A DNA stretch of 64,000 nt from an uncultured Planctomycetales bacterium (GCA_964483785.1 CAZACW010000007.1:375-64374); one strand, 5' to 3'; counted from the stretch's first letter, positions 8,151-62,965 are shown. Translations and numbers: made by a program. Notes: a model not told the origin generated them from the sequence alone.

Positions 8151-8179
8151 ACCATCACAACCCCCGGGGTTGTGATGGT
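8151..8179. repeat. PR1 palindrome copy 1 (ACCATCACAACCCCCGGGGTTGTGATGGT), in the intergenic gap between the apbC stop and the giant ORF start
   Basis: Perfect 29-nt palindrome seen in the sequence; it is a member of a 7-copy family. Confidence 0.9.
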
Positions 8180-8181
8180 TA

Positions 8182-9222
8182 TTAAGACTTGAACAAGCTG
8201 TAAGGGTAGATGCCTGAAGCATGGCCATCACTCCAGGTAATGCCTACGGCATAATTGCCTAAAGGAAGGATTTCCGTGGGGTTGATGTCCGGAGGGATTT
8301 TCTTGGGGTCCAGCAGGCGCTGGCCCGTGGTTTCCGAAATGCACAAGGCGCAGGCGCAGTTGGCCCGCAGATCAAAGGCTTTGGCAGACAATTCGCGGCC
8401 GTCATCAAAAACCAGCACCACCCTGCCATCGCGATAGCCGGCATCCTTAAGAAAGGATTGATGTATTTGGGCCTGTTTGATGGCTTGTAAAAGCCCCTCT
8501 GCCGCTTTTTGAATATAAGGATTTGAAGGAGGCTGTTCCCCGCTTTTTAAGGGGGCTGTTCCCTTTAACTGAGACAAGTCTTCCTGGATTGGGATCTCCG
8601 CCAGGGTCTTGACGCCGAAGCGCGCGGACAAGGCCCCGGTCTTGGGCTGGCCGAAAACATAATATTTTTGACCGGTGTCCGGCGCTTGAAAATACGCCAT
8701 GTTTTCAATGACCCCTAAAATCGGGACATTGACCTTTTCAAACATCAGGATGCCGCGGGCCGTGTCTGCCAGGGAAAGGCCGTGGGGTGTGGTCACGATC
8801 ACGGCGCCGGCGAGTTTCACCGACTGCGTGATGGTCAACTGCACATCGCCGGTGCCGGGCGGCATGTCGATGATCAAAAAATCCGCCCCGCCCCAGCCGG
8901 TCGGAAACAAAAGCTGCGGCAAATACCGCGGGACAATGGGCCCGGGAATCACCGCCGGAGCATCGCCCAAAAGATAGCCGAAGGACATCAATTTCAGCCC
9001 CTGGCTTTCCAGGGGCGTCAACATTTTGAATTCATTGGCCTGCACGCGGGCCTGGGGCATGGGAAAAAGCAGGGGCATGGAAGGCCCGTAAATGTCCGCG
9101 TCAAGCAAACCGGTCTTGAATTTGCGGCGCACCAGCTCCAGGCCCAGGGCCGCGGCAACAGTGGATTTGCCCACCCCGCCCTTGCAGGAAGAGACCGCGA
9201 TCACGGATTTGATATTTTTCAT
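8182..9222 (-). CDS. apbC: Mrp/ApbC/NBP35 Fe-S cluster carrier ATPase with a C-terminal DUF971-like extension
   Basis: P-loop [10 protein letters not shown] and the ParA/Mrp family fold; the C-terminal ~90 aa ([36 protein letters not shown]...) resemble DUF971. Confidence 0.8.
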
Positions 9223-10088
9223 TTTAAGGCAGCGGCCAGGGCCTGAGGGATTTCGTCGGGAAAGTCGATGACCATGACCCCGGCGTCGCGCAGCATCTGC
9301 ATCTTGGCTTCGGCGGTGGAATCTCCGGACGAGATGATGGCGCCGGCATGGCCCATGCGCTTGCCGACCGGCGCAGTGCGCCCGGCGATAAAGGAGACCA
9401 CGGGTTTGGTGACGTGCTGTTGGATGAACTCCGCGGCCAATTGCTCGTCCCCGCCGCCGATTTCGCCGACCATGACAATGGCGCGGGTGCCGGGATCTTC
9501 CTGAAACATTTTTAGGGCATCTGTAAACCGGGTGCCGATAATGGGGTCACCGCCCAGCCCCACACAGCTGGACTGGCCCATATCATGGGCCGAGAGATTA
9601 AAGACCACCTCGTAAGTGAGGGTGCCGGAGCGGGAGATGACGCCGATATCGCCGGGTTTATGGATATGCCCTGGCATAATGCCCACCTTGGACTTGCCCG
9701 GAGAGATCAGCCCCGGGCAATTGGGCCCGATCAGGCGGCAGGGGCTGTCCTTCAAAGCTTTTTTGACTTCCACCATGTCCAAAACCGGAATGCCCTCGGT
9801 GATGCAGACGATCAAGGGAATGCCGCTGGCAATGTCCTCCAGCATGGCGTCCTTGGCGAATTTGGCCGGGACATAGATCACCGCGGTGTTACAGCCTGTC
9901 TTGTCCCTGGCTTCCTTGACTGTATTAAAGACCGGGATCCCCTCGACATTCTGCCCGCCTTTGCCGGGCGTCACTCCACCTGCGACCTTGGTGCCGTACT
10001 CCTTCATCTGCTTGGCATGGAAGGAGCCGTCGCGGCCGGTAATGCCCTGGACAATCACCTTGGTGTTTAAATCGATTAAGATAGACAT
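9219..10088 (-). CDS. sucD: Succinyl-CoA synthetase alpha subunit
   Basis: CoA-binding and CoA-ligase motifs; the active-site His region [18 protein letters not shown] is present. Confidence 0.9.
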
Positions 10089-10089
10089 G

Positions 10090-11219
10090 TTATTTCGCGT
10101 CCTTCACAGCTTCGGTGACCGCCTGCCTCATCGAAGAAAAGATCGTTAAGCCGGCCTGGGTCAAAATGACCTTGGCCTCTTTTTCATTGGTGCCGGTCAA
10201 GCGGATGATCAAAGGCACCGGGATCTGGATCTGCTTTAAGGCCGTGACAATCCCGTTGGCGATATCATCACAGCGGGTGATGCCGCCGAAAATATTGATG
10301 AGGATGACCTTGATGTCCTTGTTGCGCAAAATGATCTTAAGGGCATTCAAGACCTTTTCCGGGTTCGAGGAGCCGCCCACGTCCAAAAAATTGGCCGGCC
10401 TGCCGCCCAAAAGATTGACCGCGTCCATGGTGCCCATGGCCAGGCCCGCGCCGTTGACGATACAGCCCACATTGCCTTCCAGCTTCACAAAGCTTAAGCC
10501 CTTTTGCTTGGCCTCCAGCTCGTCGGCATCCTCGTATTTCATGTCCCTTAAGGCGGCCAGCTCCGGATGGCGGTCCAGGCCGTTGTCATCGATGATCACC
10601 TTGGCGTCCGCGGCAATGAGATTGCCTTCGCCGTTGATGACAAAGGGATTGATCTCAGCCAGGGAACAGTCTTTCTCGAAAAATAGTTTCAGCAGTTTCT
10701 GCAGAATGGAGGTGGCGCTTTTTTGCAGGCGCGCATCGGGGAATAATTGGGCCACAATCGGCGCCCAGCGCGCCTCATCCAGGTTTTCCCGGCCCTGCAT
10801 GTAAAACTTGATGATTTCTCCGGATGGGTCTTGGCGGTTTCCTCGATTTCCACCCCGCCCTCGGCCGAGGCGATCACCACCACATCGCCCTTGATATTGT
10901 CAATGGTGACCGCCAGATAGTATTCCTTGCGGATATCAATGGCCCGCGCGACCAGTAAGCGGTCAACGGCATAGCCCTTGATGTTGAGATTTTTGATGCG
11001 GTTGAATTCCAGGACAAGCTCTTTATCGTTGCCCACCACCTTGACCCCGCCGGCCTTGCCGCGGCCGCCGACTAAGACCTGGGCCTTGATCACCACCGGA
11101 TACCCGGTTTTCTGGGCAATGGCCACGGCTTCCTGCGGCGTTTGGGCCACATCTCCTTTTGCGATGGGGATATCGTAAGCGGCGAATAAATTCCTGGCTT
11201 GGTATTCGTGGATCTTCAT
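10090..11219 (-). pseudogene. sucC: Succinyl-CoA synthetase beta subunit, split by a 1-bp frameshift (ORFs 10689..11219 and 10090..10800)
   Basis: The N-terminal ORF matches SucC up to ...GGVEIEETAKTHPEK and then becomes nonsense. The C-terminal ORF resumes SucC homology (...LAEINPFV..., GNVGCIVNGAGLAMGTMD). The frames would be restored by one extra A in the run gagaaatcatcaag near 10800. Confidence 0.7.
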
Positions 11220-11306
11220 ACGCTTAAGTACTGAGAACTCCTGATGGTCATAAATGTCTGAATATTATCACAATTTTAAACAAATGCGCCATAAAAATCT
11301 ATTATA

Positions 11307-11369
11307 ATAGGGGACAGCGCCCTATTTTTCAGCTTAGGGTAAAATAAAAATAGGGCGCTGTCCCCTATT
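11307..11369. repeat. PR2 hairpin element copy A (22-bp stem ATAGGGGACAGCGCCCTATTTTT ... AAAAATAGGGCGCTGTCCCCTAT), abutting the start codon of the downstream gene
   Basis: Inverted repeat seen in the sequence; a near-identical copy lies at 57155..57220. Confidence 0.85.
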
Positions 11370-13028
11370 ATGAATGCCTTTCTTGATTATATCGCCACCA
11401 AACGATGGCCAGGTATTGTCCTTATTATCCTCTTCGGCGTCATCGCTTATCACAATTGCCTGCCCAATGAGATGTTCTGGGACGATGACGATTTCATCAA
11501 CAATAACCGCTATATCCGCGATTTTCATGATTGGCCATTATGGTTTAGCCAGAACCTGGTGGCCGGCAGTTTTTTAGTCAGCAATTATTGGCGGCCGCTG
11601 TTATTGGCCATTTTTTCCGTGGAATGGCATCTTTGGCAGCGCTGGGTGTACGGCTGGCACGCGGTCACAGTCAGCTTCCATATCCTGGCAGCCCTGGCCC
11701 TTTATGCTTTGATCCACCGGCTTTTTAGCAGGCGCCTGCTGGCCCTTTTATGCGCCCTGATTTTTGTAGTGCACCCCGTACACAACGAAGCGGTCTGCTA
11801 TGTCAACAGCATGGGTGATTCCCTGGCGAGCTTCCTTCTATTATCCAGCCTCGTCTGCTTTACCCGTTTCCGGCAATCCCAACAGCCGGCCTGGGCTTCC
11901 CGCGCATACTGGGCGGCCCTGCTTTTGTACCCTTTAAGTATGCTTTCCAAGGAAACCGGCTTTGTGCTGGCCGGCCTGCTTCCCCTGACCGATTTTCTCC
12001 TGCTTTCCAAGGACAAAAATTTTTGGCGCCGCGCCGGGCAAACCGCGGCCGCGGTCTGGCCCTTTCTTGTCCTTGCGGTCATTTACATTATCCTGCGCGG
12101 CACGGTGCTGAATTTTAACAACAGCTTTAATTTCTACAACGCCCACAATGATTTCACCAATCACCCCAGCATCCGGGTGATGACCTTTTTCAAGGCCATG
12201 ACGCAGTATGCGGGCTTTTTGTTTGTCCCCTATCAATTGCGGGTGGAACGCAATATGCCCTGGGCCCAATCCCTGTTGGAATGGGATGTGCTTTGGGGCG
12301 GCTTGATCGTCGGGGCCATGCTTTGGGCCGCATTCAAATATTGGAGGACCAAGCCCTGGCTTGCCTTTGGCGTAGGATGGTTTTTTATCGCTATTGCCCC
12401 GGCTTCGAACGTTTTGGTGCCCATCAATGCCGTGATCTACGAGCATTTTCTGTACATGCCCATGATCGGCGTCACCCTGATCGCGGTTTATGCTGGACTG
12501 GACTGGGCCCAAAAACGCCAACGCACTGCGACGCTGGTCAAGGTCCTGGCCGTGATCCTGGTCCTTTTTTGCGCCATCAATATCCACCGCAATTTAGACT
12601 GGCGCACCTCCATCGGCTTTTACGAACAGCTGATCACCTATCAGCCCAATGATTACAGGGTCATCAATAATTTAGGGATGGAATACGCGAATAAAGGCAT
12701 TCATGACAAGGCCCTGGCCACGTATTTGAAGGCCATTGCCCTGGACCCTCAAAACCCCGTGGCCTATCATAATATCGCCGGCACCTACCGCGACACCGGC
12801 CACATTGACCTGGCCCTGCAGAATTTTCAAAAGGCCATTGAGCTTAATCACAACTTTATTTTTTCCTACCGTTCCCTGGCGGATATTTACTGGAGGCTGG
12901 GGCAATGGGAGAACTGCCGGCGCTGTTTGCTGGCGATTTTGAGTTTCGACCCCACGGATGCCAATGTCCGTCAGGTCCTGCAGGAAGTGGAACAGAGATT
13001 AAAACCATCACAACCCCCGGGGTTGTGA
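11370..13028 (+). CDS. Polytopic membrane protein with C-terminal TPR repeats (GT39/PMT-like or TMTC-like topology)
   Basis: Many N-terminal hydrophobic segments and a C-terminal TPR consensus (YNLGMEYANKG..A...Y.KAIALDP..). The last 7 codons and the stop (PSQPPGL*) are encoded by PR1 copy 2. Confidence 0.6.
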   Translation: MNAFLDYIATKRWPGIVLIILFGVIAYHNCLPNEMFWDDDDFINNNRYIRDFHDWPLWFSQNLVAGSFLVSNYWRPLLLAIFSVEWHLWQRWVYGWHAVTVSFHILAALALYALIHRLFSRRLLALLCALIFVVHPVHNEAVCYVNSMGDSLASFLLLSSLVCFTRFRQSQQPAWASRAYWAALLLYPLSMLSKETGFVLAGLLPLTDFLLLSKDKNFWRRAGQTAAAVWPFLVLAVIYIILRGTVLNFNNSFNFYNAHNDFTNHPSIRVMTFFKAMTQYAGFLFVPYQLRVERNMPWAQSLLEWDVLWGGLIVGAMLWAAFKYWRTKPWLAFGVGWFFIAIAPASNVLVPINAVIYEHFLYMPMIGVTLIAVYAGLDWAQKRQRTATLVKVLAVILVLFCAINIHRNLDWRTSIGFYEQLITYQPNDYRVINNLGMEYANKGIHDKALATYLKAIALDPQNPVAYHNIAGTYRDTGHIDLALQNFQKAIELNHNFIFSYRSLADIYWRLGQWENCRRCLLAILSFDPTDANVRQVLQEVEQRLKPSQPPGL

Positions 13029-13032
13029 TGGT
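13004..13032. repeat. PR1 palindrome copy 2, overlapping the 3' end and TGA stop of the TPR membrane protein gene
   Basis: Perfect 29-nt palindrome. Confidence 0.9.
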
Positions 13033-13812
13033 CTAAATTAAGATTTGTTTAAAAAATTTCTGCATTTCATCCCACGAGGCCTTGTCCGCGTCTGCGTTAT
13101 ACAAGGCGCCGGGCGGGTCAATGCCCTTATTGTCCGGGTTGGTAAAGCCGTGCATGGCGCCGGGGTATTTGATCAGGCGGTAATCGACCTTGGCTGTCTT
13201 CATCTCTTCTTCAAAGGCCGCCACTTCCTCAGGCTTGACATAGGGGTCTGCATCACCGTGCAGGACCAGGACCTTGGTCTTGATATTTTTAGCATCCTGC
13301 GGGGTCGGGGTGCTTAAGCCCCCGTGAAAACTGACAATGCCCTTAATATCCGCGCCGCTGCGGGCCAATTCCAAAACAGCGGTACCGCCGAAACAATAGC
13401 CGATGGCCGCCAGCTTGGATGGGTCCACGTTGGCTTGTGATTTGAGGGCATCCAACCCGGCATTGACGCGCGCCCTGAAAAGCGCCCGGTCGCCCTTGTA
13501 TTTCCCCGCGGCGGCACCCGCCTCTGCCGTGGTTTGCGGTTGGGCCCCTTTGCCGTAAATGTCCGCGGCAAAGGCCACGTAGCCCAGTTGTGCCAGCATA
13601 TCTGCCCGCCGTTTGGCATAGGCATTAAGCCCTTTCCATTCATGCACCACCAGAACTCCTGGGCGCTGGCCGCTCAAAGCATTATCATAAGCCAGATAGC
13701 CTTCTAAAACCGTATCGCCCTGCTTATAGTCCACAAGCCGGGTCGTTAAGGCGGCCCAGGATGTTGCGGCCGCGCCTGTCAAAGCCATTAAAAAAACCAA
13801 AAGTAAACGCAT
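13033..13812 (-). CDS. Dienelactone hydrolase-family alpha/beta hydrolase, secreted
   Basis: Signal peptide plus the DLH-family pattern (HEWKG..., GYCFGG nucleophile elbow, ...HGGLS..., HGF). Confidence 0.7.
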   Translation of the reverse strand: MRLLLVFLMALTGAAATSWAALTTRLVDYKQGDTVLEGYLAYDNALSGQRPGVLVVHEWKGLNAYAKRRADMLAQLGYVAFAADIYGKGAQPQTTAEAGAAAGKYKGDRALFRARVNAGLDALKSQANVDPSKLAAIGYCFGGTAVLELARSGADIKGIVSFHGGLSTPTPQDAKNIKTKVLVLHGDADPYVKPEEVAAFEEEMKTAKVDYRLIKYPGAMHGFTNPDNKGIDPPGALYNADADKASWDEMQKFFKQILI

Positions 13813-13839: not shown

Positions 13840-13868
13840 ACCATCACAACCCCGGGGGTTGTGATGGT
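13840..13868. repeat. PR1 palindrome copy 3 (centre CCCCGGGGG variant)
   Basis: Perfect palindrome lying between two tandem minus-strand genes. Confidence 0.9.
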
Positions 13869-13891: not shown

Positions 13892-14572
13892 TTAATACGA
13901 CGTTGTCGAACCGACGTTATTTAATACTTTTTCCCCCATCAAAATGGGGTCCACCGGCTTGGCGTCGATTCTAAGCCCGCCGTCGTGCTCGATATGGATG
14001 GTGTAAAGATACCCTGGAATAAACACAACCCCCGGCGCCTCGATCTGCACGCTTTTGACACCCGCCTTCCTGGCCCTGACCTCATCAAAGGCAAAGCGCC
14101 AGAAATCATGCCAGAACCTGTTTTCAAAACCGCTGGTCTTGCCTGGCACCTTATAGCCGCCCGGCACCTCATCCACCTGGGTGATGGGAAATTCCTGGGT
14201 CTTGCTGCCGTCGAGCACAAAGGCCTTCCAGAACAGGTACACGCTTTTGCCTTTGAACAGATCGCCGGCAGCCACGAATTTGTCCTCGAAGCGCACCACC
14301 AGGGACTGAAACTGGATCAATTTTCCGCTGAAGGTGAAATATTTAGGGGCCAGGGGCTGATTGTCCGTGTCATATTCGACAAACTTGATGGTGGTTTTGT
14401 CGCGGCGGCTCGCCTCATCAAAATTCACGTCGGTGACTAAGACCTGCGCGGCCCGCGATTCCGCCTGCAGGCGCTGCAGCATCTCTTTGTACACATGCTC
14501 GCGCCTAAGATGCCAGACCAGCCAAAAACCGGCCAGGACCAGGAAAAAAACGATGATGAGCGTCCTGTTCAT
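13892..14572 (-). CDS. Hypothetical membrane-anchored protein
   Basis: The ORF has an N-terminal TM helix; no recognisable family. Confidence 0.4.
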   Translation of the reverse strand: MNRTLIIVFFLVLAGFWLVWHLRREHVYKEMLQRLQAESRAAQVLVTDVNFDEASRRDKTTIKFVEYDTDNQPLAPKYFTFSGKLIQFQSLVVRFEDKFVAAGDLFKGKSVYLFWKAFVLDGSKTQEFPITQVDEVPGGYKVPGKTSGFENRFWHDFWRFAFDEVRARKAGVKSVQIEAPGVVFIPGYLYTIHIEHDGGLRIDAKPVDPILMGEKVLNNVGSTTSY

Positions 14573-15715: not shown

Positions 15716-16204
15716 TTATAAAAAATAATGCTCAATGGCGGTTTTGCCGTCATTGTTATCATTAAGGGCCAATGGGCCTGTGGGCTCCAGCAGGGAACTT
15801 AAATATTCCCCTTGTTCCTTGTCCTTGGCCTGTTGAAGGCGCATGGTGTTCAAGGTCACGGACCCGGCCAAAAATATCAGGATAAAACTGGCCAAAACCG
15901 GGACCAGCCTCGGCCATATCAGCCATCCTTTTAGATTTTCGATGAATTCTTCCAAGGGGCCTTCAGCGGCCTGGCCCTGGCGCTCGAGCTTTTCCCTGAT
16001 ATTCTCCCAAAGCTGGGCAGGCACCGGCTGCTGGGGCAGGCCGGCAAAAGGCAGGACCGCATTGTTCCTGACCTCTTTGTAAAAGGCGCGGCAATCCGCG
16101 CAATCCTGCAGATGGGATTCCAGGCCGCCGCTAAGTTCCTGGCCGGCCTCAGCGTCCATATAATCCGTCAGGATCAGGTCTTTAAATTGGTCACACTTTT
16201 TCAT
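15716..16204 (-). CDS. Zinc-finger (zf-HC2) transmembrane anti-sigma factor
   Basis: HLQDCADCRAFY (HxxxCxxC) motif plus one TM segment; overlaps the sigma gene by 14 nt. Confidence 0.65.
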   Translation of the reverse strand: MKKCDQFKDLILTDYMDAEAGQELSGGLESHLQDCADCRAFYKEVRNNAVLPFAGLPQQPVPAQLWENIREKLERQGQAAEGPLEEFIENLKGWLIWPRLVPVLASFILIFLAGSVTLNTMRLQQAKDKEQGEYLSSLLEPTGPLALNDNNDGKTAIEHYFL

Positions 16205-16748
16205 AATCCACCTTCCTTAAACTCAGCAATTTCTCACGGGACCTTTTCAGGCGCGAGCGCACGGTATTGATGTTGATATTCAAGGACCGGGCAATATCTT
16301 CATAGCTTAGGCCCTGGATATCGCGCAAGACCACACAGGCCCTTTGGTCAGGGTTGAGCTCAGCCAGCAGGCTTTCCACCAGCTTGCTGCGATGTTCCGC
16401 GTCCATCCGGGCCAGGACCTCGTTGTCCACCGCGCCCTCGCCGAAAGCCTCTTCAAAAGGGGTGGTTTTGACCCGCGAGGCCTTTTTGGCGAAATTGATT
16501 GCGTGATTGGCCGTGATCCTGTAGGCCCAGGTCTTAAATGAAGACTCAAAACGAAAGGTCTTGAGCTTATGATAGACGGCCATAAAGACCTCCTGGGAGA
16601 CTTCCAGGGCATCTTCCCTATTATTGACGATTCTCAGGGCCACGTTATAAACGAAGCTGCTGCTTTTCTGGTACACCTCTTCAAAAGCCTGCCGGTCGCC
16701 CTGGGAGGCCCTGATCAATATGTCCTTGCCTATGTCTTCCATCAGCAC
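16191..16748 (-). CDS. ECF (sigma-70 family) RNA polymerase sigma factor
   Basis: Region 2 (FEEVYQKSSSFVYNVALRIV... FKTWAYRITANH) and region 4 HTH (LSYEDIARSLNININTVRSRL). Confidence 0.85.
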   Translation of the reverse strand: MLMEDIGKDILIRASQGDRQAFEEVYQKSSSFVYNVALRIVNNREDALEVSQEVFMAVYHKLKTFRFESSFKTWAYRITANHAINFAKKASRVKTTPFEEAFGEGAVDNEVLARMDAEHRSKLVESLLAELNPDQRACVVLRDIQGLSYEDIARSLNININTVRSRLKRSREKLLSLRKVDYEKV

Positions 16749-16791
16749 CTTCTAACCTTTAGACAACAAAAGGGAGCCTAAAGTTCCCTGT

Positions 16792-17169
16792 TCAATCGCC
16801 GTCTTCCCGGCTGATCTCCATATGAAATTCGTGCAAAAAGCGGTGGATCAGGGGCGCGAAAATGATGGCCAAAACCATGTAAAACACCACCGCGGTCAAG
16901 ACCGCGTAAACCGTTGTAAAAATTTTGCCTCCATCCGTGTGCAAGGTATCGGTGAGCCCCAGGCCGGTCATCACCAGCACTGCGTTCATCACTGCATCCA
17001 CCCAGGAAAAGCCCTCAACGCCATGATAAACAACGGCGCCCAGGGCAATGGTGGCAACCAGCATCAAAAGGGCCAGGCCGAAACACCTGGTGACCCTTTG
17101 CCAGAACATTTTCTTGGAAATCAGGGGCTGGCGGTGGTGTTCAAAGATCGTAAAGAATTTTCTGCTCAT
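16792..17169 (-). CDS. Small multi-TM membrane protein (ion-channel-like)
   Basis: Three hydrophobic helices; weak resemblance to two-TM channel pore proteins. Confidence 0.3.
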   Translation of the reverse strand: MSRKFFTIFEHHRQPLISKKMFWQRVTRCFGLALLMLVATIALGAVVYHGVEGFSWVDAVMNAVLVMTGLGLTDTLHTDGGKIFTTVYAVLTAVVFYMVLAIIFAPLIHRFLHEFHMEISREDGD

Positions 17170-17354
17170 CCTTCCTCCTCGCTGTCTTTGAGAAGTTTCT
17201 TGATATGGTGCCGCTGGATTTTATTCGGTACAAATTTTCCCATAAACCACCTGTTGACCGTGACAAAGGTAACCCCAAGGATCCCAGCCAATTTGGTCTG
17301 TGATATCTTGTGCTCGAGGCGGTAGTCTTCCAATTTTTTGATCAATTTACTCAT
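17166..17354 (-). CDS. XRE-family helix-turn-helix transcriptional regulator
   Basis: HISQTKLAGILGVTFVTVNRW is an HTH_3 motif. Confidence 0.6.
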   Translation of the reverse strand: MSKLIKKLEDYRLEHKISQTKLAGILGVTFVTVNRWFMGKFVPNKIQRHHIKKLLKDSEEEG

Positions 17355-17510
17355 GATTTTAACATCATTTTATATCACATTATATCATTTTATAAAACAG
17401 AATTTTAAAAATTCAATATCTTTTTATAGCACAATAGATCTTCTTATATCCTAATTTTGCGTAGTTGGTCAGTCTCGATTATTGTAAGTCCTAAAGCTCA
17501 ATAATACCAT

Positions 17511-18360
17511 CTATTTCCCGAGGTTTCTTTGCCACCCTGCTGCCACGGCTGGTGTAGTTCCAAGGCTCTGATGGACGCGGCAGAAGTTATAATACATAAA
17601 GTGAAGGGCCACGGCACACGCTAAATTGTTCACCTTCTTTGAGAACGCATTGGTCAATCGAGTAAATCTTCTCATACTCATCCGCATTGTCAAGTTCTGT
17701 CTTTCAACAAAGTTTGTCGATATGTGGCGGCTCCCAGGGGTTCCGTTGATCTTGGTTTTCTCTGCACCAATGCAGACAGGCGGGCTGTATTTGCTTTTTC
17801 CTTCAAAGGCGTAATCAAGGTCGTAAATCTTATGGAGTTGGCGTAGTCAATCAGTGCCGAATACCTGGCCACAACATAGTGTTTCAGACCGTCTGTGGCC
17901 AGCTGTACCCTGTTTTTAAGGCTCCTGCCAGGTCTTGGATGAAAACCCCTTGCAGAAGTGGCATTCCTCTGCCCCCAATATACCATGAAGGCACCAGCTT
18001 GGTGTCCGCACATATAGCCGTCCAAGTCCATACATCCCCATAGCCAAATTGACCTCGCTTGTCTTTAGGGATATTCCGTTCTTTTGAGTAGCAGAATGAC
18101 CAGATTTCGTCGCATTGGAGGCGTTTACAGGGCAAATCCTTGAATATGCGGTCTTGCTATTCCGTACAGACCGCCCCCAGATCGCATAATAGCTTCAATA
18201 CTGTGCCTTTGGCGACGCCCGTCATACGGCAGGTGGCTCTAATGGAGTTCTCTTCCACTAAGGACGCTACTACCTGCTTACCCTTTTCTCTGGTCAATTG
18301 GTTCATGCTTCTACCCTCACTTTCTAAGGGCATCATACTTGAGCGGTCAAGTATTGTCAA
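17511..18360 (-). mobile_element. Degenerate IS1-family insertion sequence: InsA-like HTH ORF (18157..18360) plus an InsB-like transposase broken into 3 frames (17884..18135, 17690..18031, 17511..17693)
   Basis: InsA-like IRATCRMTGVAKGTVLKLL; InsB-like CDEIWSF..., ...ATDGLKHY..., ...YNFCRVHQSLG...; multiple frame changes indicate decay. Confidence 0.6.
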
Positions 18361-18399
18361 AAAAATATTGCCTTATTCAGTAAGAATCATGTTTGTTCT

Positions 18400-18993
18400 T
18401 TACGATCTTTTTATTTGGAAAGGCGCTACGAATTCTTTGGTAAGGACAGTTCTTTCATCACAATTTTCCCACAATTCTCGATGGGGAGCGCATTCACCGC
18501 TTCCATGATAGAGATGGACAAATACCCCTTCCTTTCTTGCGACCTCGACTGCTGGAAGGAAATCACTATCCCCAGTAATTAGAATAGCATGAGAAATCAT
18601 CCTCTTTGCAGAAAGCAACACCAAGTCCACTCCGAGGGAAATATCGACTCTTTTTTGTTCAAATATGGGCCTATTGTCTACTTTATTTATTCCCCTATAT
18701 TCCAATTTGCCATACCTAACATCAAATCGTGGCAATTGTTTCAAATTATGGAAAAAGGAAGAAGCTTTTGAAAATCGAACACTTTCTTCTTGCGTTGGAG
18801 GATTGCTCTGATATGGCAAACAATTATAATAATGGGTCCTTAATAAATCCATGTTGCCTGCGAGCGCTTCCGCCAATTTCCCAAGATGGATATTAGGCAA
18901 ACATAAGTCTTTCTTACCCACATAACTAAGATATGCCCCATCAATAAAAATGGCTACACGCGTTCCGATCATACACCCTCCTAAAGTTGTCAT
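18400..18993 (-). CDS. NYN-domain (LabA-like) protein
   Basis: ...AIFIDGAYL...ILITGDSDFLPAVEVARKEGVFVHLY is the NYN/LabA signature. Confidence 0.65.
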   Translation of the reverse strand: MTTLGGCMIGTRVAIFIDGAYLSYVGKKDLCLPNIHLGKLAEALAGNMDLLRTHYYNCLPYQSNPPTQEESVRFSKASSFFHNLKQLPRFDVRYGKLEYRGINKVDNRPIFEQKRVDISLGVDLVLLSAKRMISHAILITGDSDFLPAVEVARKEGVFVHLYHGSGECAPHRELWENCDERTVLTKEFVAPFQIKRS

Positions 18994-19172
18994 TTACAAA
19001 ATAAAACGCCTCCCAACACAAAGGAGGCGTTATGTTTTACCGCCATTCAAGATTGCTCTTGGACGGCGGGGATTATCTTTAGGATGTTTCGTCTGCTTTA
19101 AGTATGCACTACAAAATTAGTTCTGTCAAGCTTAAGCAAATAATAATCTATGGCACATGCCATTGTCAAGGA

Positions 19173-19391
19173 TTATTTTTCCCAGCGCTTTTGTGCGGCT
19201 TTTTGAGCAATTTCCCGACGACGTTTTGCAGAAAGGACTTCGGCCCTGGCCTTGCCCCCTTTAAGTCCCCCAAGACGGCCCAAGGCAACGGCGGCAGGAT
19301 TTTTTTCAGGACTTGCTTCTGCGGATTGCATGACCTGCCCAAGCATGGAAGCAGCTATTTGATTTTCGTCTTTGCTTGAACGCTTAGGCAT
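19173..19391 (-). CDS. Small basic KGG-motif protein
   Basis: GRLGGLKGGKARAEVLSAKRRREIAQKAAQKRW. Confidence 0.35.
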   Translation of the reverse strand: MPKRSSKDENQIAASMLGQVMQSAEASPEKNPAAVALGRLGGLKGGKARAEVLSAKRRREIAQKAAQKRWEK

Positions 19392-19465
19392 GGATGAATT
19401 GTATCACAATTTTTAAAATTTGCAAATTTAATTACCTGCCGAGACACCCCGTTTGATTATTGACA

Positions 19466-19494
19466 GCCCCTCTCACAAGAGTATAATAAATCGG
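19466..19494 (+). promoter_or_regulatory. Near-consensus sigma-70 promoter (TTGACA-16nt-TATAAT) upstream of the HicB-like gene
   Basis: ttgacagcccctctcacaagagtataat, followed by the RBS ggaggagg 6 nt before the ATG at 19532. Confidence 0.6.
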
Positions 19495-19531
19495 GTTATT
19501 AAACCAAGTTAAATACACGGGAGGAGGAAAT

Positions 19532-19867
19532 ATGGGATTACAATGCGTAATTAAATTATCAGTCGCTTTCAGACAAGACCCGGAAACGAATCTATTCGTT
19601 GGGTTTTGTCAAGATTTAGGAGTTTATTCTCAAGGGATAACTCACAAAGAAGCAGAAGATGGATTGGCAAGCGCCATTAATTTATTCTTAAAACATGGCG
19701 GTTTTGAAAAATTGATGAAAGAAAAGGGATTTAATACCATCAAGGCCTGCCCTGAAAGGAATTTGGCCATTGCAGGAGATTTAATAGAAAATTACAGTAG
19801 CATAGGTAGCTTTGATTTACCTGCTCAAATCCGAAGGGAAGATGCTGTATGCCAGCCCTGCCACTAA
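19532..19867 (+). CDS. HicB-like (UPF0150) antitoxin-family protein
   Basis: ...VGFCQDLGVYSQGITHKEAEDGLASAINLFL... resembles the HicB N-domain. Confidence 0.45.
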   Translation: MGLQCVIKLSVAFRQDPETNLFVGFCQDLGVYSQGITHKEAEDGLASAINLFLKHGGFEKLMKEKGFNTIKACPERNLAIAGDLIENYSSIGSFDLPAQIRREDAVCQPCH

Positions 19868-20121
19868 TTCCGCCTAAGGCATTATTAGAAATATTGTTAA
19901 AATATGCCTATGAAATTGTCGACGAAGATGCTTTTTGTTGGGTATTACGGCGAGGGGAGGAGCTGCCATTAATCCTAACAAAAAGAGGCCACGTGGTTAC
20001 AAGAGACTTCATGGAAGCCGCCCTTAAGCAAGCTAAAATGGACAATCTTACGTATTTTAAATTTTTAAAAGAGGTTTGCCCAGAAACTATTGCTGGTATG
20101 ACCATCGAAGAAAAATCTTGA
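19849..20121 (+). CDS. HicA/YcfA-like small protein (possible degenerate toxin partner), overlapping the upstream gene by 19 nt
   Basis: Weak HicA-like pattern (K.LLEIL...W.L.R.G..........G.L....LKQA) without the canonical GSH motif. Confidence 0.3.
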   Translation: MPALPLIPPKALLEILLKYAYEIVDEDAFCWVLRRGEELPLILTKRGHVVTRDFMEAALKQAKMDNLTYFKFLKEVCPETIAGMTIEEKS

Positions 20122-20232
20122 CCCCGTTTTGCATATCATTTTATATCATTCTTTCGAATTGACCCACTACCCTGATTTTGTGCAGCACGTAGCAAAATAG
20201 CTGTGTTTCAAGGACTTGGCGCGGTTTCTTCT

Positions 20233-20619
20233 TTAGGCCTCTTCGCTTAAGATACGTCCCAGGATCTTGCTGTCTAAGGCATCAGCCATCTGTTCCATAT
20301 GGCCGTCCATCCACTGGATCCAGGGCCTGCTTTTAAGCGTCTCGATGGAAAAGAGCGCCCCGCACAGATAGCGCTCGCCCTGCGCCCCGATCCTGCGAAA
20401 CCACACCAGGTTTCCTTGCGCGGGAAAGCTCGGCACGCCTTCCACACTGAAATTCATTTTCAATCCGTCTTCGGCTTTGAATAATCTGTCCGTGACAAAA
20501 AGCATTCCCGGCAGGCTGATGTTTAAAATAATGCCCTGGCCCTGCGCTTTTTGGCTGGGCACGGTCCAATGAACATCCAATTGCTTGCGCAGGCGGAAAT
20601 GTTGGCGGCGGTTGATCAT
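20233..20619 (-). CDS. PilZ-domain c-di-GMP-binding protein
   Basis: RRQHFRLR ... NISLPGMLF (RxxxR and D/NxSxxG motifs). Confidence 0.65.
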   Translation of the reverse strand: MINRRQHFRLRKQLDVHWTVPSQKAQGQGIILNISLPGMLFVTDRLFKAEDGLKMNFSVEGVPSFPAQGNLVWFRRIGAQGERYLCGALFSIETLKSRPWIQWMDGHMEQMADALDSKILGRILSEEA

Positions 20620-20640
20620 AACGTGGCCTCCTGATTTAAT

Positions 20641-22116
20641 TTAACGGCGGACCGGATAGATATACGCGAGATCATTCATATCGATGACCACAGCGTTCGG
20701 CAGCAAAGAGTAAGTGTCTCCGGCGTTGGAATAGGTGACGATGCAATGAAGCTCAAAGGGCTCTCCCATGTCGGTCAAGGCCACCCGGATCAGGTCAGGG
20801 ATCTCATAATCATTGATGGCCTTGTTGAAATTATCATAGACCGTCGGCATCCCATTATACCCTACGCCCATGTCTTTTTTGCGAATAATATGGATTTCTT
20901 GCGTTTGGCTGGAGACCTCCTGGGCGATGCGGCTGCGGACAAACATCAATTCAGCATGATTATTCATGACATTCAAGGTAGTGGTGTGATTGGCCATGAC
21001 CAGTCCCCCGCCAAGCAAACAAGCCGGCCATATCAGGGATTTGAAGCGGTTTTCCCTTTTCCATAGCCCTGCCAGCCATTGGCCGCCCTTGTAAACCATG
21101 CCCAATATCACGGCCTGTGCTGCCATAAAATGCTGGGGCATATAATCTCCGTATACTACCCACATTATATTTAATATAAATAATATAGAAAGCAAAGCAA
21201 ACATTCTAAGTATGCTGGTGCTTTTGAACATTGATAATTCAGACAGCACAAAGGCCCCCAGCATAAGATCAATGGCCAGGCCTATGGGTTTTGAACCGTA
21301 GATGTTCCATAAGCTGATGATTTGAGGCAGGCCCTGGGGTAGCAGCGTTCTTAGATGATTGAAGACCAGGGGCCAGCCGAAAAAAACATCATGGCTTGTT
21401 GATTTGATCCGGGCCCAAAAAAACAATTTCAGAGTCAAATAAAACAGCGCCGCGGCCAAAATCCAGATGACGATAAATTTCACCTGGGCGCGCGGGACAA
21501 ACTTTTCTGGCGGCTGAAACAAAACCTGAAAACAGGGCGGCACCAAAATAAAAAAGGTCGATGGAGGGTAGGTGAAAAACGCGGCTTCCACAAGGGCCAG
21601 GGCCAAAAGATACCGCGGTCCTCCCCAAGACGTTTGGGATAAAATCAGGCCGGCGCATAAAGAAATTAACCCGGCCAGGACACAGGGCAGATAAGGGACA
21701 AAGATAAAATCCTGAAAGCCCGGCAGGGTCAGGACCGTTGTTCCCAGGCAAAAAGCCGGGACAGTTTCCAAGCCCGCGGCCCCGGCCAGGACAGCCAGCA
21801 GCGCCGCGCATGCGGCAGCGGCGGCAATGGTCATGAATCTGAGTCTCGCCAGGTCGGTCAAATGCTGGATGGTCTCATAAAAATACTGCTCTATCTCTGC
21901 CAGGATAAAACGGCCTTCGGAAAGGGAATACTCAAACAGCGGGCTGTTCTGGCGATCCAGCGCTTTATTGTAAAACTTATGGAAATACCGGATGCTGTCG
22001 TGATTGATGTAGGTGATATTGACCGTCGGAGCGTAGGCGAGGTACAAGCACAGCAGGCTCCCGGCCCATAGGAGGAAAAACCGTCTCAGGCCTTGAAGGC
22101 AGGATGCATTCGGCAT
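20641..22116 (-). CDS. Polytopic membrane protein of unknown function
   Basis: More than 10 predicted TM helices; no confident family. Confidence 0.4.
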   Translation of the reverse strand: MPNASCLQGLRRFFLLWAGSLLCLYLAYAPTVNITYINHDSIRYFHKFYNKALDRQNSPLFEYSLSEGRFILAEIEQYFYETIQHLTDLARLRFMTIAAAAACAALLAVLAGAAGLETVPAFCLGTTVLTLPGFQDFIFVPYLPCVLAGLISLCAGLILSQTSWGGPRYLLALALVEAAFFTYPPSTFFILVPPCFQVLFQPPEKFVPRAQVKFIVIWILAAALFYLTLKLFFWARIKSTSHDVFFGWPLVFNHLRTLLPQGLPQIISLWNIYGSKPIGLAIDLMLGAFVLSELSMFKSTSILRMFALLSILFILNIMWVVYGDYMPQHFMAAQAVILGMVYKGGQWLAGLWKRENRFKSLIWPACLLGGGLVMANHTTTLNVMNNHAELMFVRSRIAQEVSSQTQEIHIIRKKDMGVGYNGMPTVYDNFNKAINDYEIPDLIRVALTDMGEPFELHCIVTYSNAGDTYSLLPNAVVIDMNDLAYIYPVRR

Positions 22117-22180
22117 GAATTAAAATCTTTGAAGAAAATAAATGGCTTCATTTAGACGAGTTGCGCAACTGGCCGATGAA

Positions 22181-23448: not shown

Positions 23449-23455
23449 GGTTTAA

Positions 23456-23511
23456 TTTTACCGGGAATCCCGGTAAAAATCAAGTCAATTTTACCGGGAA
23501 TCCCGGTAAAA
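23456..23511. promoter_or_regulatory. Two copies of the 19-bp palindrome TTACCGGGAATCCCGGTAA, 32 bp apart, each flanked by T/A runs (operator pair or tandem bidirectional terminators)
   Basis: Seen in the sequence 8 bp upstream of the GHKL ATPase start and ~110 bp downstream of the AAA ATPase stop. Confidence 0.5.
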
Positions 23512-47145: not shown

Positions 47146-47170
47146 GGATGAATGCGCCTGCGGGCTAACT

Positions 47171-48868: not shown

Positions 48869-49037
48869 ATTGATGTGGATAAGGCCTTGGGCTTATCCAA
48901 GGGTTATCCACAACTGTTAATAGCTCTAACCGTATTCAAATAATCAGGTTTTGTTCTTAATTCAACTTATCCACAGGCCCTATTACAATTTCTACTGATT
49001 GGCCCAAGGGCTTCCAAAATCATATTAGGCAAAGGTT
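48869..49037. promoter_or_regulatory. Putative oriC core: cluster of DnaA boxes (TGTGGATAA at ~48875, TTATCCAAG at ~48898, TTATCCACA at ~48913 and ~48975) between dnaA and dnaN
   Basis: Three perfect and one near-perfect 9-mers seen directly; the first two form an inverted pair. Confidence 0.7.
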
Positions 49038-49043
49038 GTGCAT

Positions 49044-55430: not shown

Positions 55431-55504
55431 GACCCCATCGTCTAGCCTGGTCAGGACACGAGCTTTTCAAGCTCGCAGCACGGGTTCAAATCCCGTTGGG
55501 GTCG
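55431..55504 (+). tRNA. tRNA-Glu (UUC)
   Basis: Hand-folded: 7-bp acceptor GACCCCA/TGGGGTC, anticodon loop ttTTCaa, T-loop GGTTCAAATCC. Confidence 0.8.
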
Positions 55505-55545
55505 TTAATTTTGAAAGGGCATTTTGCCCTTTCAAAATTAATAAC
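55505..55545 (+). terminator. Perfect 17-bp-stem hairpin (TTAATTTTGAAAGGGCA tt TGCCCTTTCAAAATTAA) immediately after tRNA-Glu
   Basis: Seen in the sequence. Confidence 0.7.
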
Positions 55546-55623
55546 CGCCTTCGCGTTTGAAGCTCTCAGACGAGTCAGATGCGGGAGGGTTGACGAGCAA
55601 GAGAGCGTTCACTGAAGCCTTTT

Positions 55624-55670
55624 CCCGTTGGGGTCGTTAATTTTGAAAGGGCATTTGCCCTTTCAAAATT
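55624..55670 (+). repeat. Direct repeat of the tRNA-Glu 3' end (13 nt) plus the terminator hairpin, 47/48 identical to 55493..55540
   Basis: cccgttggggtcgttaattttgaaagggcatttgccctttcaaaatt. Confidence 0.8.
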
Positions 55671-56342: not shown

Positions 56343-57158
56343 ATGACCAAGACACCAGGAATTTTGAAAATTGCCCTTTTGCAGTTTAGCGCCGGGACGG
56401 ACAAAGGTTCGAATCTCAAGACCGCCCTGGCGCTGACACAGGAGGCCCTGGCCAAGGGCGCCCAAGGCGTTCTGCTTCCGGAAGTTTTTAATTTTCGGGG
56501 CGATGCGAAGGACCAAGAAGCTTTTCGCGCGGCCAGGGAAAATATACCAGGCCCGACGGTGGAAGCCTTCCGGCCCCTGGCCCGGCGCGCCAAGGCCTTT
56601 ATTTTGCTGGGCTCCCTGCTGGAGCGCGCGCCCCAAGGCCTTGCCTATAACACGTCGGTATTCCTGGATGGCTGCGGGCAGATCCAGGCCCGGTACCGCA
56701 AAATCCATTTATTCGATGCCCGGCTGGCGGATAAGATCATCCGGGAAGCAGAGCTCATGAAGGCAGGGCAGCGTCCGGCCTTGGCCAGGGCAGGGGCCTT
56801 TACCTTCGGCCTTTCCGTCTGCTATGATCTGCGTTTTCCTGATCTTTACCAGCGCTATGCGCGCCAAGGGGCAAAGGTCTTGACGGTCCCGTCGTGTTTT
56901 ACCCGCAAAACCGGCGAGGCGCATTGGGAGCCCCTGCTGCGGGCCCGCGCCATTGAAAATTTGTCCTATGTGCTGGCGCCGGCCCAGGTCGGCACAGACC
57001 GCCGGGGCATCCAGGCCCATGGCCACAGCATGATTGTCGCGCCGTGGGGGGAGATCATCGCTGAAGGCAGCGGCGATCGGGAAGAGATCATTTTCGGTCA
57101 AATCGAGATGGAAGAAGTGCAGAAAGCCAGAAAGGCCTTGCCGGGCGTCTTAAAATAG
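56343..57158 (+). CDS. Carbon-nitrogen hydrolase (nitrilase superfamily) protein
   Basis: E-K-C triad context (...LLPEVF..., ...RKIHLFD..., ...GLSVCYDLRFP...). Confidence 0.8.
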   Translation: MTKTPGILKIALLQFSAGTDKGSNLKTALALTQEALAKGAQGVLLPEVFNFRGDAKDQEAFRAARENIPGPTVEAFRPLARRAKAFILLGSLLERAPQGLAYNTSVFLDGCGQIQARYRKIHLFDARLADKIIREAELMKAGQRPALARAGAFTFGLSVCYDLRFPDLYQRYARQGAKVLTVPSCFTRKTGEAHWEPLLRARAIENLSYVLAPAQVGTDRRGIQAHGHSMIVAPWGEIIAEGSGDREEIIFGQIEMEEVQKARKALPGVLK

Positions 57159-57220
57159 GGGACAGCGCCCTATTTTTCAGCATGACGTGAAATAAAAATA
57201 GGGCGCTGTCCCCTATTTTT
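57155..57220. repeat. PR2 hairpin element copy B, overlapping the nitrilase-family gene stop codon; behaves as a bidirectional terminator
   Basis: ATAGGGGACAGCGCCCTATTTTT-cagcatgacgtgaaat-AAAAATAGGGCGCTGTCCCCTATTTTT. Confidence 0.85.
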
Positions 57221-57330
57221 AAGCCCGCCGGCCAGACGGCTGTTTCCGCTGAGCTTATGGCCCATCCCTAATTTGTATTGAAGCTCATATTAGCCGCGGT
57301 TATAATCATTTAAACATAAATTGGTTGTAA

Positions 57331-60341: not shown

Positions 60342-61196
60342 TTGCCTCTCGAGAATAGAAAACAGATCATCATCATCGCCGGTGCCGTGATCGCCGGCGT
60401 TGTGGCGGTTTTTTTGACCAGCAATTATGTCAGGGTCAGCATCCAGAAACAGACCGCGACCCTGGCCGAGCATTATGACGCCAAGCAAAAGGCGGCCATG
60501 GGCCAATTGGAACAGAAGAGCGCAATGCAGATGGCGGCCCTGGCGCAGGAACTGCAGCGCGTGAAGACCGAACAGGCCCAGGACACCAAACGCCAGATCG
60601 ATTCCATGAAGGCGGCCCTGGAGCAGGCCGAGGCGCGCGCCCGCCAGCCTGTGGTGGTGGCGCCTGTCAAGGTCCGCAAGCCGTCCTTGGCCTTAAAGAC
60701 GCCCGCGGGCAAACGCGCGGTGACCGTGATGATCAGTTCCCTGGAAGCCGTGGGCGGCCTGCTTAATCCCGGAGATTTTGTGGACGTGATCGCCCAGCTG
60801 AGTGTCCCGGCCCAGGATGTGGACAAGAAAAACGTCACGGCGATGATTTTTCAGGGCCTGCAAGTCTTGGCCATCAACACCAATTTGGATGATCCCGGGG
60901 CCTATGACGACCAGCAGGCGGCCCCGGCCTTAAAGATCACCCTGGCGGTGGACCCTCAGGAAGCCGGGCTTTTGTCTTTTGCCAACAAGAACGGTTCCAT
61001 CCAGCTGGCCCTGCGCTCGCCGGATGAGACCGAACATCAAATGGTCAAGGCCTCCACCTGGAAGACCTTGGCGGATTATGTGATGAAAAACCAGGGCGTC
61101 AACATTCAGGACCCCGACGGGGAAAATGCCAACGCCAAACCCATCGAAAACAACAAGCCGGCCATCCAGATCTATAGGGCCGGCAAGGAATTATAG
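60342..61196 (+). CDS. cpaB: Flp/Tad pilus assembly protein CpaB/RcpC
   Basis: N-terminal TM, SAF/CpaB motifs (...NPGDFVDVIA..., ...LQVLAINT...). Confidence 0.7.
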   Translation: MPLENRKQIIIIAGAVIAGVVAVFLTSNYVRVSIQKQTATLAEHYDAKQKAAMGQLEQKSAMQMAALAQELQRVKTEQAQDTKRQIDSMKAALEQAEARARQPVVVAPVKVRKPSLALKTPAGKRAVTVMISSLEAVGGLLNPGDFVDVIAQLSVPAQDVDKKNVTAMIFQGLQVLAINTNLDDPGAYDDQQAAPALKITLAVDPQEAGLLSFANKNGSIQLALRSPDETEHQMVKASTWKTLADYVMKNQGVNIQDPDGENANAKPIENNKPAIQIYRAGKEL

Positions 61197-61201
61197 ACCC
61201 T

Positions 61202-62926
61202 ATGAAATCTCCTTTGATTAAAACAGCACTGGCCTTGAGCCTCGCAGCGGGCCTGTGCGCTTATTTTATGCCGCGGCTTTTGGCCGACGATGAGGCCGCG
61301 GCCCAGCAGGACGTCATTGACCTTGTCGTCGGCGACATCCAGACCGTGCAGGCCTCCGGCCTGACCAGGGTCTCGGTCACGAACCCGGACATCGCGGACA
61401 TTTCCGACGCTAAAGAAGACAAGGTTTCGCTGTTGGCCAAAAGGCAGGGCAAGACCATCCTGTTTTTGTGGGATGCCAACGGCAAGCGCACCGTCATCGT
61501 GCAGGTGATCAATGAAGAGCTTGGCTCCGTCAAGGCGCGCTTGCAGAAGATTTTGGCCGAGGCCAATATCACCGGCGTTGCCCTGGAAGAAAACCCCGAA
61601 GAAGGCAAGGTGGTGGTTTCCGGGTCCATGTCCAAGGAAGACAAGGACAGGCTTAACAATGTCCTGGCCCCCTACAGCGAGGGCCTGCTGAATCTCGTGA
61701 AGACGCAAAAGGACGAGGATTTGATCCAGGTGGACATGGAGGTCGTGGAAATCCAGACCAATTATGAAAAGAGCTTAGGCATTCTCTGGGGCTCGACCAG
61801 CTCCGGCGCCAACGGCGGGGGCGGCAGCAGTGCCGGCAATATCACGCTCAATTATAACGAGACCCTGCCGCAGATGAACGGCCATCCGGACAATTTTTTT
61901 AAGATCGGCAATTTCCGCAGGACAACGCCCCTGGAAGCCACGGTGCAGGCCCTGATCCAGGACGGCAAGGCCAGGCTGATTTCCAAGCCCAGGCTCGTCG
62001 CTGTCAGCGGCAAACAGGCCTCCTTCCTGGTGGGCGGCGAGATCCCCATTGAAACAACGACCACCAATACGACGGGCAGCACCTTGACCCAAAATACGAG
62101 CTATGCGCAGTACGGTGTCAACATGATGGTCACGCCCACCATCCGCGGCAGCAAGATCGATGTTTTGCTTAACATGGACATCCGCGACATCGACGCGGCC
62201 AATTCTTCCAACGGCAATGTGGCCTTTATCACCCGCAATGCCACCACCGACCTTTTGATGGAGAACAAGCAGACCATTGTGCTGGCGGGCCTGATCAAAT
62301 ATTCGGACAGCAAGCAGATCACCAAGGTCCCGTTTTTGGGGGACATCCCGGTCTTGGGGCTGTTGTTTCGCAGTTCCTCCTATCCTTCCCCGACGAATAA
62401 CACCGAGATGGTGATCATCTTGACGCCGACCGTGCTGACTGAAAAGAAATTCGAGCAGAAACAGCTGATCATGCCGACCCCTGAGGAGAACAAGGCCTGG
62501 AATGAGATCGACGGAAAATATCCGCATGAGGCCATGCACTCGGAGTGGCCGCATCCTAAGTCCTCCGGGGATGAGACCTCCCTGGTGCTTCCGGTGATGA
62601 CCGCCTACGCGCGCACGGTGCAGGAGAAGATTTCCCGGGCCATCGCCTATCCGCCCGCGGCCCTGGGGCAGGATCTGGCCGGCACGGTGAAGCTTAAACT
62701 GCACATTCTTAAAGACGGGTCCCTGGATTCGGAAGAGCTTCTGCAATCGTCGGGCAGCAATATCCTGGACCAGGACGCCATGCAGGCGGCCAGGTCCGCG
62801 GCCCCGTTTGACGCGTTTGCCTCCGGCATGGACCAGGACGATATTGTCTTTACCATCCCCATCGTGTACAACCGGATGATCACGCAGGGGCAGGCCGCTC
62901 CGGAGAAGGTCATCGCCTCGTATTAG
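61202..62926 (+). CDS. cpaC: Secretin (CpaC/RcpA-type) with a C-terminal TonB-C-like domain
   Basis: Secretin core (...VLAGLIKYSDSKQITKVPFLGDIPVLGLLFRSS...). The C-terminal ~120 aa (...AIAYPPAALGQDLAGTVKLKLHILKDGSL...) resemble the TonB_C/energy-transducer fold. Confidence 0.7.
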   Translation: MKSPLIKTALALSLAAGLCAYFMPRLLADDEAAAQQDVIDLVVGDIQTVQASGLTRVSVTNPDIADISDAKEDKVSLLAKRQGKTILFLWDANGKRTVIVQVINEELGSVKARLQKILAEANITGVALEENPEEGKVVVSGSMSKEDKDRLNNVLAPYSEGLLNLVKTQKDEDLIQVDMEVVEIQTNYEKSLGILWGSTSSGANGGGGSSAGNITLNYNETLPQMNGHPDNFFKIGNFRRTTPLEATVQALIQDGKARLISKPRLVAVSGKQASFLVGGEIPIETTTTNTTGSTLTQNTSYAQYGVNMMVTPTIRGSKIDVLLNMDIRDIDAANSSNGNVAFITRNATTDLLMENKQTIVLAGLIKYSDSKQITKVPFLGDIPVLGLLFRSSSYPSPTNNTEMVIILTPTVLTEKKFEQKQLIMPTPEENKAWNEIDGKYPHEAMHSEWPHPKSSGDETSLVLPVMTAYARTVQEKISRAIAYPPAALGQDLAGTVKLKLHILKDGSLDSEELLQSSGSNILDQDAMQAARSAAPFDAFASGMDQDDIVFTIPIVYNRMITQGQAAPEKVIASY

Positions 62927-62934
62927 TCCCTTCC

Positions 62935-62965
62935 AACCATCACAACCCCCGGGGTTGTGATGGTT
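62935..62965. repeat. PR1 palindrome copy 7, immediately after the secretin stop
   Basis: AACCATCACAACCCCCGGGGTTGTGATGGTT. Confidence 0.9.

Follow-up and report, generated by a model that had tools for sequence, protein, structure and literature searches.

A stretch of 64,000 nucleotides (GCA_964483785.1, CAZACW010000007.1:375-64374, listed under an uncultured Planctomycetales bacterium and hereafter called the window) contains a palindrome, PR1, that recurs in identical form just behind genes and also inside coding sequence, which raises the question of what class of repeat it belongs to and how its copies came to occupy these positions. PR1 is a real repeat of the known general kind of repetitive extragenic palindromes (REPs), but it is untagged and fully symmetric, and it is considered probable, with some reserve, that it represents a lineage-specific repeat of the REP class which has recently multiplied in one lineage of Candidatus Omnitrophota. 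Its importance would lie in a recent burst of a private hairpin repeat in one lineage, missing from relatives; only the untagged symmetric structure and a length-neutral copy in coding sequence go beyond what is ordinary for such repeats, and should they prove common across the genome, they would be relevant to the question of how REPs without a tag arise. Omnitrophota are an uncultivated phylum of very small cells that are possibly predatory or parasitic. To our knowledge, work on REP-like repeats has been confined almost wholly to Proteobacteria, and a text search of the literature found no paper describing one in Omnitrophota.

The PR1 unit and its restriction to one lineage

The unit reads CCATCACAACCCC-[C/G]-GGGGTTGTGATGG and is 27 nt long (13+1+13), with A...T flanks in 6/6 perfect copies that extend it to 29 nt. 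Six perfect copies, one with two mismatches and one half-site of 17 nt are present in the window, which corresponds to a density of about one copy per 9 kb, the degenerate copy and the half-site being its decayed forms. When the 27-nt unit was searched with up to 3 mismatches, 7 matches were observed versus 0.00 expected from 100 dinucleotide-preserving shuffles, in agreement with the count of 7 copies in 64 kb proposed by an earlier sequence-only reading, and all seven copies as well as the half-site were found at the coordinates given there. The 31-nt consensus offered by the same reading (AAC-CCCC[C/G]GGGG-GTT) had to be corrected, since it has one C and one G too many and therefore returns 0 matches even at 3 mismatches. 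The arm CCATCACAAC has 15 exact matches in the window, arranged as seven close inverted pairs and one single arm, the pair at 45107 having a mismatched left arm. A 12-nt partial match at 14024-14035 was also considered and set aside as compatible with chance (about 0.1-0.3 expected).

As had been claimed, PR1 occurs in both orientations, as judged by its centre base, which on the plus strand is C in four copies (27-mers starting at 8152, 13005, 45107 and 62937) and G in three (13841, 33152 and 44269); no bias of strand or orientation was detected when transcription or an origin presumed near dnaA was taken as reference, with a 4:3 split or similar in these comparisons. The hexamer CCCGGG, to which attention had been drawn, is indeed contained in every copy, but the site itself is not unusual, with 22 occurrences in the window versus 31 expected, so that the idea of a restriction-modification target or SmaI site was abandoned and CCCGGG is regarded as incidental.

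With regard to its distribution, all relatives identified through the GyrB of the window are metagenome-assembled genomes (MAGs) of Candidatus Omnitrophota, the best being 89-90% identical. The exact PR1 sequence gave 0 matches in 185,579 species-representative genomes (GTDB), 0 in JGI metagenomes and 0 in viral contigs, while plasmid and phage records yielded no significant match, only partial ones at chance level. The 19-nt core was also tried and had 3 matches with unrelated flanks, about the number expected by chance. No PR1 arm in palindromic form (up to 1 mismatch) was found in 80 related gyrB loci. Synteny with the window at 40.5-63.6 kb is seen in the comparison locus L060 (89% GyrB identity), which does not carry PR1 in the parB-parA gap, upstream of parA or after the secretin gene, and the loci L003 and L005 are likewise without it at the corresponding par sites; the parB-parA gap comprises about a dozen bases in L005 versus 54 in the window. 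In a wider set of 83 other loci (about 1.25 Mb, mostly Omnitrophota), a perfect palindrome present twice was encountered in one locus, whereas the window has four such families. Judged from these sequence comparisons, PR1 is, as far as public data go, private to one lineage.

Placement behind genes and hairpin structure

A rough gene set marks about 92% of the window as coding. Five of the seven copies are nevertheless intergenic, the other two forming the tail of a TPR gene and an in-frame part of a coding sequence (CDS), and the chance that five of seven random placements fall in the roughly 7.5% of non-coding DNA is P ~4e-5 (binomial). PR1 strongly favours positions immediately 3' of genes: its intergenic copies lie 2-23 nt past the upstream stop codon, and its neighbours are co-directional or convergent, with 0 copies between divergent genes. 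The earlier description of copies in few-bp gaps is loose, the intergenic gaps measuring about 54-190 nt, and its statement that copies occur both at gene boundaries and in coding sequence is borne out by the five intergenic copies, one that supplies a stop codon and one in frame within a CDS. On either strand, PR1 can be read through in two of its frames, the remaining one being interrupted by TGA. The copies and the surrounding open reading frames (ORFs) are as follows.

Copy 1, 8151-8179: perfect 29-mer, centre C; 2 nt past the stop codon of an apbC/Mrp-like gene (8182-9222, minus strand; Pfam PF10609 ParA/NUBPL) and about 157 nt from the start of a giant ORF (2-7993, minus strand).
Copy 2, 13004-13032: perfect, centre C; between convergent genes, encoding the final 7 codons (PSQPPGL) and the TGA (13026-13028) of the TPR gene (11370-13028, plus strand) and adjoining the stop codon of a dienelactone hydrolase gene (13033-13812, minus strand).
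Copy 3, 13840-13868: perfect, centre G; between co-directional minus-strand genes, 23 nt past the stop codon of ORF 13892-14572 (226 aa, no Pfam match, with an apparent hydrophobic N-terminal segment) and 28 nt ahead of the hydrolase start (13812).
Copy 4, 33151-33179: perfect, centre G; in frame within an 852-aa ORF (31545-34103, minus strand), encoding T-ITTPGVVM-V, with flanks that lengthen the palindrome to 37 nt (AATAA...TTATT).
Copy 5, 44268-44296: perfect, centre G; in the 54-nt gap from the parA stop (44309) to the parB start (44254), both on the minus strand, 12 nt past the parA stop.
Copy 6, 45106-45134: degenerate, centre C, with two left-arm mismatches (CCTCC for CCATC); directly after the jag_N stop (45139) and beside a parS-like site (45092-45105) that adjoins the parA ATG (45091).
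Copy 7, 62936-62964: perfect, centre C; 9 nt past the stop codon of the secretin gene (61202-62926, plus strand) and 53 nt ahead of a CpaE-like ATPase gene (63018-63998, plus strand), hence between co-directional genes.
Half-site, 31908-31924: 17 nt comprising the centre and the right arm (CCCGGGGTTGTGATGGT) without the left arm; in the 852-aa ORF, encoding DHHNPG and overlapping a D-x-H-N-P motif conserved in distant homologues of this ORF.

Both the 852-aa ORF and the 552-aa TPR ORF are called NCBI proteins (P0001, P0121). The copies at 13004/13840 and 44268/45106 form two pairs, each bracketing one gene (dienelactone hydrolase and parA, respectively), with spacings of 836 and 838 nt and with opposite centre bases within each pair; the near-equal spacing is probably a coincidence.

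At the RNA level PR1 is predicted to fold into a 13-bp stem with a 3-nt loop (-22 to -28 kcal/mol, z -3.9 to -6.8), and at the gathering threshold of Rfam 15 no family covers it, the only matches in the window being five tRNAs and 6S RNA. If transcribed within or at the end of operons, the stem would be expected to impede 3'-5' exonucleases or to mark a point of processing or attenuation, in the manner of Escherichia coli REPs, rather than to work as a canonical intrinsic terminator; it is structure and position that suggest such a function in mRNA processing or 3' protection. In this regard, it may be asked whether PR1 is primarily a shared terminator or attenuator hairpin that has been selected at gene ends, its spread being secondary. 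Like intrinsic (Rho-independent) terminators it offers a strong, GC-rich 13-bp stem directly 3' of genes, all intergenic copies lie within 23 nt of a stop codon, one copy separates convergent genes, and paired uptake sequences of Neisseria demonstrate that termination can be a second function of a repeated palindrome (PMC2397512). On the other hand, 0/6 perfect copies pass a scan for a hairpin followed by a T-run and the degenerate copy (45106) alone scores as terminator-like, on the antisense strand; PR1 is situated for the most part within runs of genes resembling operons, four copies lying between tightly spaced co-directional genes, parA/parB included, one lies within a CDS that requires read-through, and a single 29-nt sequence is reused at every site. 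This explanation is therefore held to be unlikely.

Class, origin and spread of the repeat

REPs have been described between co-directional or convergent ORFs, less than 20 bp from 3' ends, where they may supply stop codons, and are found occasionally in frame inside genes (Di Nocera et al., PMC3733652). PR1 conforms to this class in the broad sense, being a stem-loop unit within the 20-40 nt range whose copies are dispersed and mostly intergenic near upstream 3' ends, and the earlier view of a dispersed, hairpin-forming, REP-like repeat is upheld for a 29-nt element with seven copies versus none by chance. The accompanying term MITE-like, referring to miniature inverted-repeat transposable elements (MITEs), does not fit, because PR1 consists of only two arms, without terminal inverted repeats around an internal segment and without direct target duplications, and because MITEs measure 70-300 bp (PMC3733652). 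More narrowly defined classes do not accommodate it either: PR1 corresponds neither to the GTAG/CGTC super-families nor to a doublet of the REPIN type, a MITE, a DNA uptake sequence (DUS) or uptake signal sequence (USS) with its core of 9-12 nt (PMC2397512), an intrinsic terminator, parS or an Rfam family.

Comparison with known systems places these likenesses and differences side by side. The REP/REPIN-RAYT systems of Enterobacteria and Pseudomonas resemble PR1 in having 20-40 nt hairpins that are species-specific, mostly extragenic near 3' ends and present in both orientations (PMC3733652; PMC3337134), whereas PR1 is a perfect rather than an imperfect palindrome and has no GTAG tag, no doublets and no RAYT within the window. 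In the GTAG/CGTC super-families the repeat ends likewise supply stop codons and some in-frame copies encode short peptides (Di Nocera et al. 2013, PMC3733652), but neither tag stands at either end of PR1 and its intragenic copy leaves the protein length unchanged. Rickettsia palindromic elements (RPE) are also tolerated in frame within genes; however, RPE-1 is a longer insertion that adds residues and RPE-4/6 are REP-like with CGTC, while PR1 is 29 nt long, untagged and length-neutral in its one CDS copy (PMC3733652). Inverted DUS pairs of Neisseria share with PR1 a repeated palindrome right after genes, and new copies of them can replace resident sequence, but PR1 lacks the other traits of DUS, namely a unit of 10-12 nt that is mostly single, a density of about 1 per kb, genus-wide occurrence, variable pair spacing (up to 21 nt) and U-tracts (PMC2397512); in the window one isolated half-site stands against seven fused pairs, and PR1 is absent from relatives.

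As a non-autonomous repeat of the REP class, PR1 would owe its new copies to an enzyme whose gene lies elsewhere in the genome and which acts on the element as a single-stranded hairpin, the obvious candidate being an HUH/tyrosine transposase of the RAYT/IS200 type, even though PR1 is without the usual asymmetric tag, and copies would have been kept where they are harmless, just past stop codons or in a tolerant protein loop. Several observations weigh against this proposal. The symmetry of PR1 is nearly perfect, but the hairpins used by known Y1 transposases are asymmetric and are accompanied by a guide tetranucleotide (compare PMC3733652); once normalised for orientation, the flanks consist of A...T and AT-rich sequence and contain neither an unpaired GTAG nor a CGTC tag. 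Pfam scans of about 55 ORFs of the window detected no transposase domain, which also substantiates the earlier remark that no RAYT-like gene is visible there. Close inverted pairs of PR1 (REPINs) are absent, the nearest neighbours being those 836 and 838 nt apart around whole genes, and the in-CDS copy is length-neutral, which simple insertion does not predict. With respect to the flanks, 4/14 read AATAA|CC outward from the repeat, and no direct target-site duplications were found.

Two copies in coding sequence inform on whether DNA was added or exchanged. Orthologues of the TPR protein are 72-77% identical with a modal length of 546 aa and end in ...EEKLKP, about one residue past ...KLK, while the protein of the window has 552 aa and an extra PSQPPGL encoded by PR1; deleting the 29-mer from the gene restores ...AGA TTA AAC TAA, an immediate stop that overlaps the stop codon of the hydrolase. 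This comparison favours a net insertion of about 6-7 codons relative to orthologues. In the 852-aa ORF, the segment between a conserved G and IY that contains copy 4 has 11 aa; the same loop has 11 aa in the giant paralogue of the window (IDDVDKGAKDA; gapless BLASTP), and 11 aa is also the commonest loop length among 59 homologues, from which it follows that nine codons were replaced and not added. Homologues with other repeat-like peptides in this loop (e.g. VIPAKAGIQ, NASIGNP) are longer there. Copy 4 may thus represent, as far as these alignments indicate, an insertion with a compensating deletion or a replacement of the conversion type. The two mismatches of the degenerate copy coincide with CCCTCC, which is also present in L060 at that place, beside a different CCCGGG-centred hairpin.

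Such findings leave some room for mechanisms without a transposase. One of them, which we judge to be quite unlikely, holds that PR1 is not moved by a REP-type tyrosine transposase but is a symmetric hairpin that overwrites DNA through hairpin-primed template switching or microhomology-seeded short-patch conversion; it would explain the nine-codon swap, the half-site on a pre-existing similar coding motif and the missing asymmetric tag. Another proposal, in which PR1 does not insert but replaces, its spread being due to a conversion-like or uptake-signal-like drive that overwrites resident sequence, could draw on the 9 codons exchanged in the in-CDS copy at unchanged length, on the position of the half-site on the conserved DxHNP motif, on the retention of CCCTCC by the degenerate copy, on the origin of DUSs by recombination and their ability to form terminators as pairs (PMC2397512), and on the presence of a Tad/Flp-type pilus locus with secretin in the window. 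This proposal is regarded as very unlikely in view of the net insertion at the TPR gene, the parB-parA gap that is longer in the window than in L005, a density well below the roughly 1 per 1.1-1.5 kb of DUS, the rarity of single arms (1/8) against two arms that are always fused at a fixed spacing, and a sequence that is not common to close relatives.

It could also be argued that PR1 is the site of a sequence-specific DNA-binding protein, whether chromosome-organising, ParB/Noc-like or a global regulator, and that it is enriched near the origin. The window is origin-proximal because it contains dnaA-dnaN-DciA-gyrB-gyrA (plus strand) and yidD-yidC-jag_N-parA-parB (minus strand), two copies flank parA and one of them adjoins the parS-like site, and the element has dyad symmetry around a C/G centre. 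However, all 27-29 positions are invariant in six copies, far more than protein binding requires; at those places a canonical parS is retained by relatives, which lack PR1; copies are found within a CDS and as a gene tail; and they extend over 55 kb without visible clustering around dnaA. A binding site is accordingly given very little credence.

That PR1 could be an artefact of assembly, adapters or amplification, as a perfect palindrome in a metagenome-assembled contig and the ends of independent contigs within perfect copies might suggest, can be practically dismissed, since two assemblies give identical sequence for three copies, the degenerate one among them, the copies are placed in keeping with reading frames and stop codons, decayed copies exist and plasmid or phage records show no match. 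The independent assembly consists of two Logan contigs of run SRR12313480, L084, which is 99.97% identical to window 9785-13029, and L085, which is 100% identical to window 44271-49623; together they reproduce the copies at 13005, 44269 and 45107 with both mismatches of the latter, and the possibility of an assembly artefact, which the earlier reading had named as a reason to reject the repeat, is answered in this way. Both contigs end inside a perfect PR1 copy at the same relative base, as is to be expected of a palindromic repeat in a short-k graph. Repeats of this type thus have practical consequences, as they break short-k assemblies and set small annotation traps, with a stop codon and a spurious TTG start within the repeat.

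Other repeats and features of the window

PR1 was also considered as parS itself, a 16-bp palindrome of the TGTTNCACGTGAAACA type, and this was rejected, since a separate parS-like site is present in the window and relatives have a perfect parS without PR1. The parS-like site of the window, ATTCCACGTGAAAC at 45092-45105, adjoins the parA start codon, and L060 (about 4616-4631), L003 and L005 have a perfect parS, GTTTCACGTGAAACA, between jag and parA.

A second repeat family occurs at 11302-11374 and 57150-57222, with a 73-nt unit that is 89% identical between the two sites and is composed of two 26-nt arms, 100% complementary and 16 nt apart, each of which is a small hairpin (AAAATAGGG-GACAGCG-CCCTATTTT). 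By its sequence arrangement this repeat is a REPIN-like doublet, and the 83 other loci are without it. At 23451-23516, in the gap separating ORFs 22495-23448 and 23619-24767, two copies of the palindrome TTTTACCGGGAATCCCGGTAAAA stand side by side. In addition, a 46-nt direct repeat at 55491-55536 and 55623-55668 is 89% identical between its copies, each of which contains the hairpin TTTGAAAGGGCA..TGCCCTTTCAAA; the first copy starts inside the 3' end of tRNA-Glu (55431-55504), and the repeat looks like the attachment-site scar of an integrated element.

The giant ORF, which extends beyond the window and has more than 2,664 aa, and the 852-aa ORF have a common N-terminal domain of about 330 aa with 46% identity. 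This domain has no Pfam match but more than 4,000 database homologues, the named ones from Omnitrophica, whose C-terminal parts are very different and whose variable loops often hold peptides resembling translated palindromic repeats. Within the 852-aa ORF an inverted repeat at 33356-33471, built on GGGGACTGTCCC / GGGACTGTCCCCATTTTG, corresponds to a net insertion of 19 residues relative to the giant paralogue. Just downstream of this ORF lies the 6S RNA gene (31321-31483, minus strand).

The succinyl-CoA ligase beta gene (10090-11219, minus strand) is split in the window into two overlapping ORFs (ATP-grasp_2 and Ligase_CoA), while in L084 it is intact with 376 aa; a single indel separates the two sequences, and the split is probably a frameshift error or a variant in the MAG contig. 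Finally, a stretch of low GC content at about 16000-24000 (0.45 versus 0.52-0.57 elsewhere in the window), which contains genes for an ECF sigma factor, an NYN-domain protein, a DUF4143 ATPase and a PilZ protein together with a weak HATPase-like ORF and several ORFs without a match, may be an acquired island.

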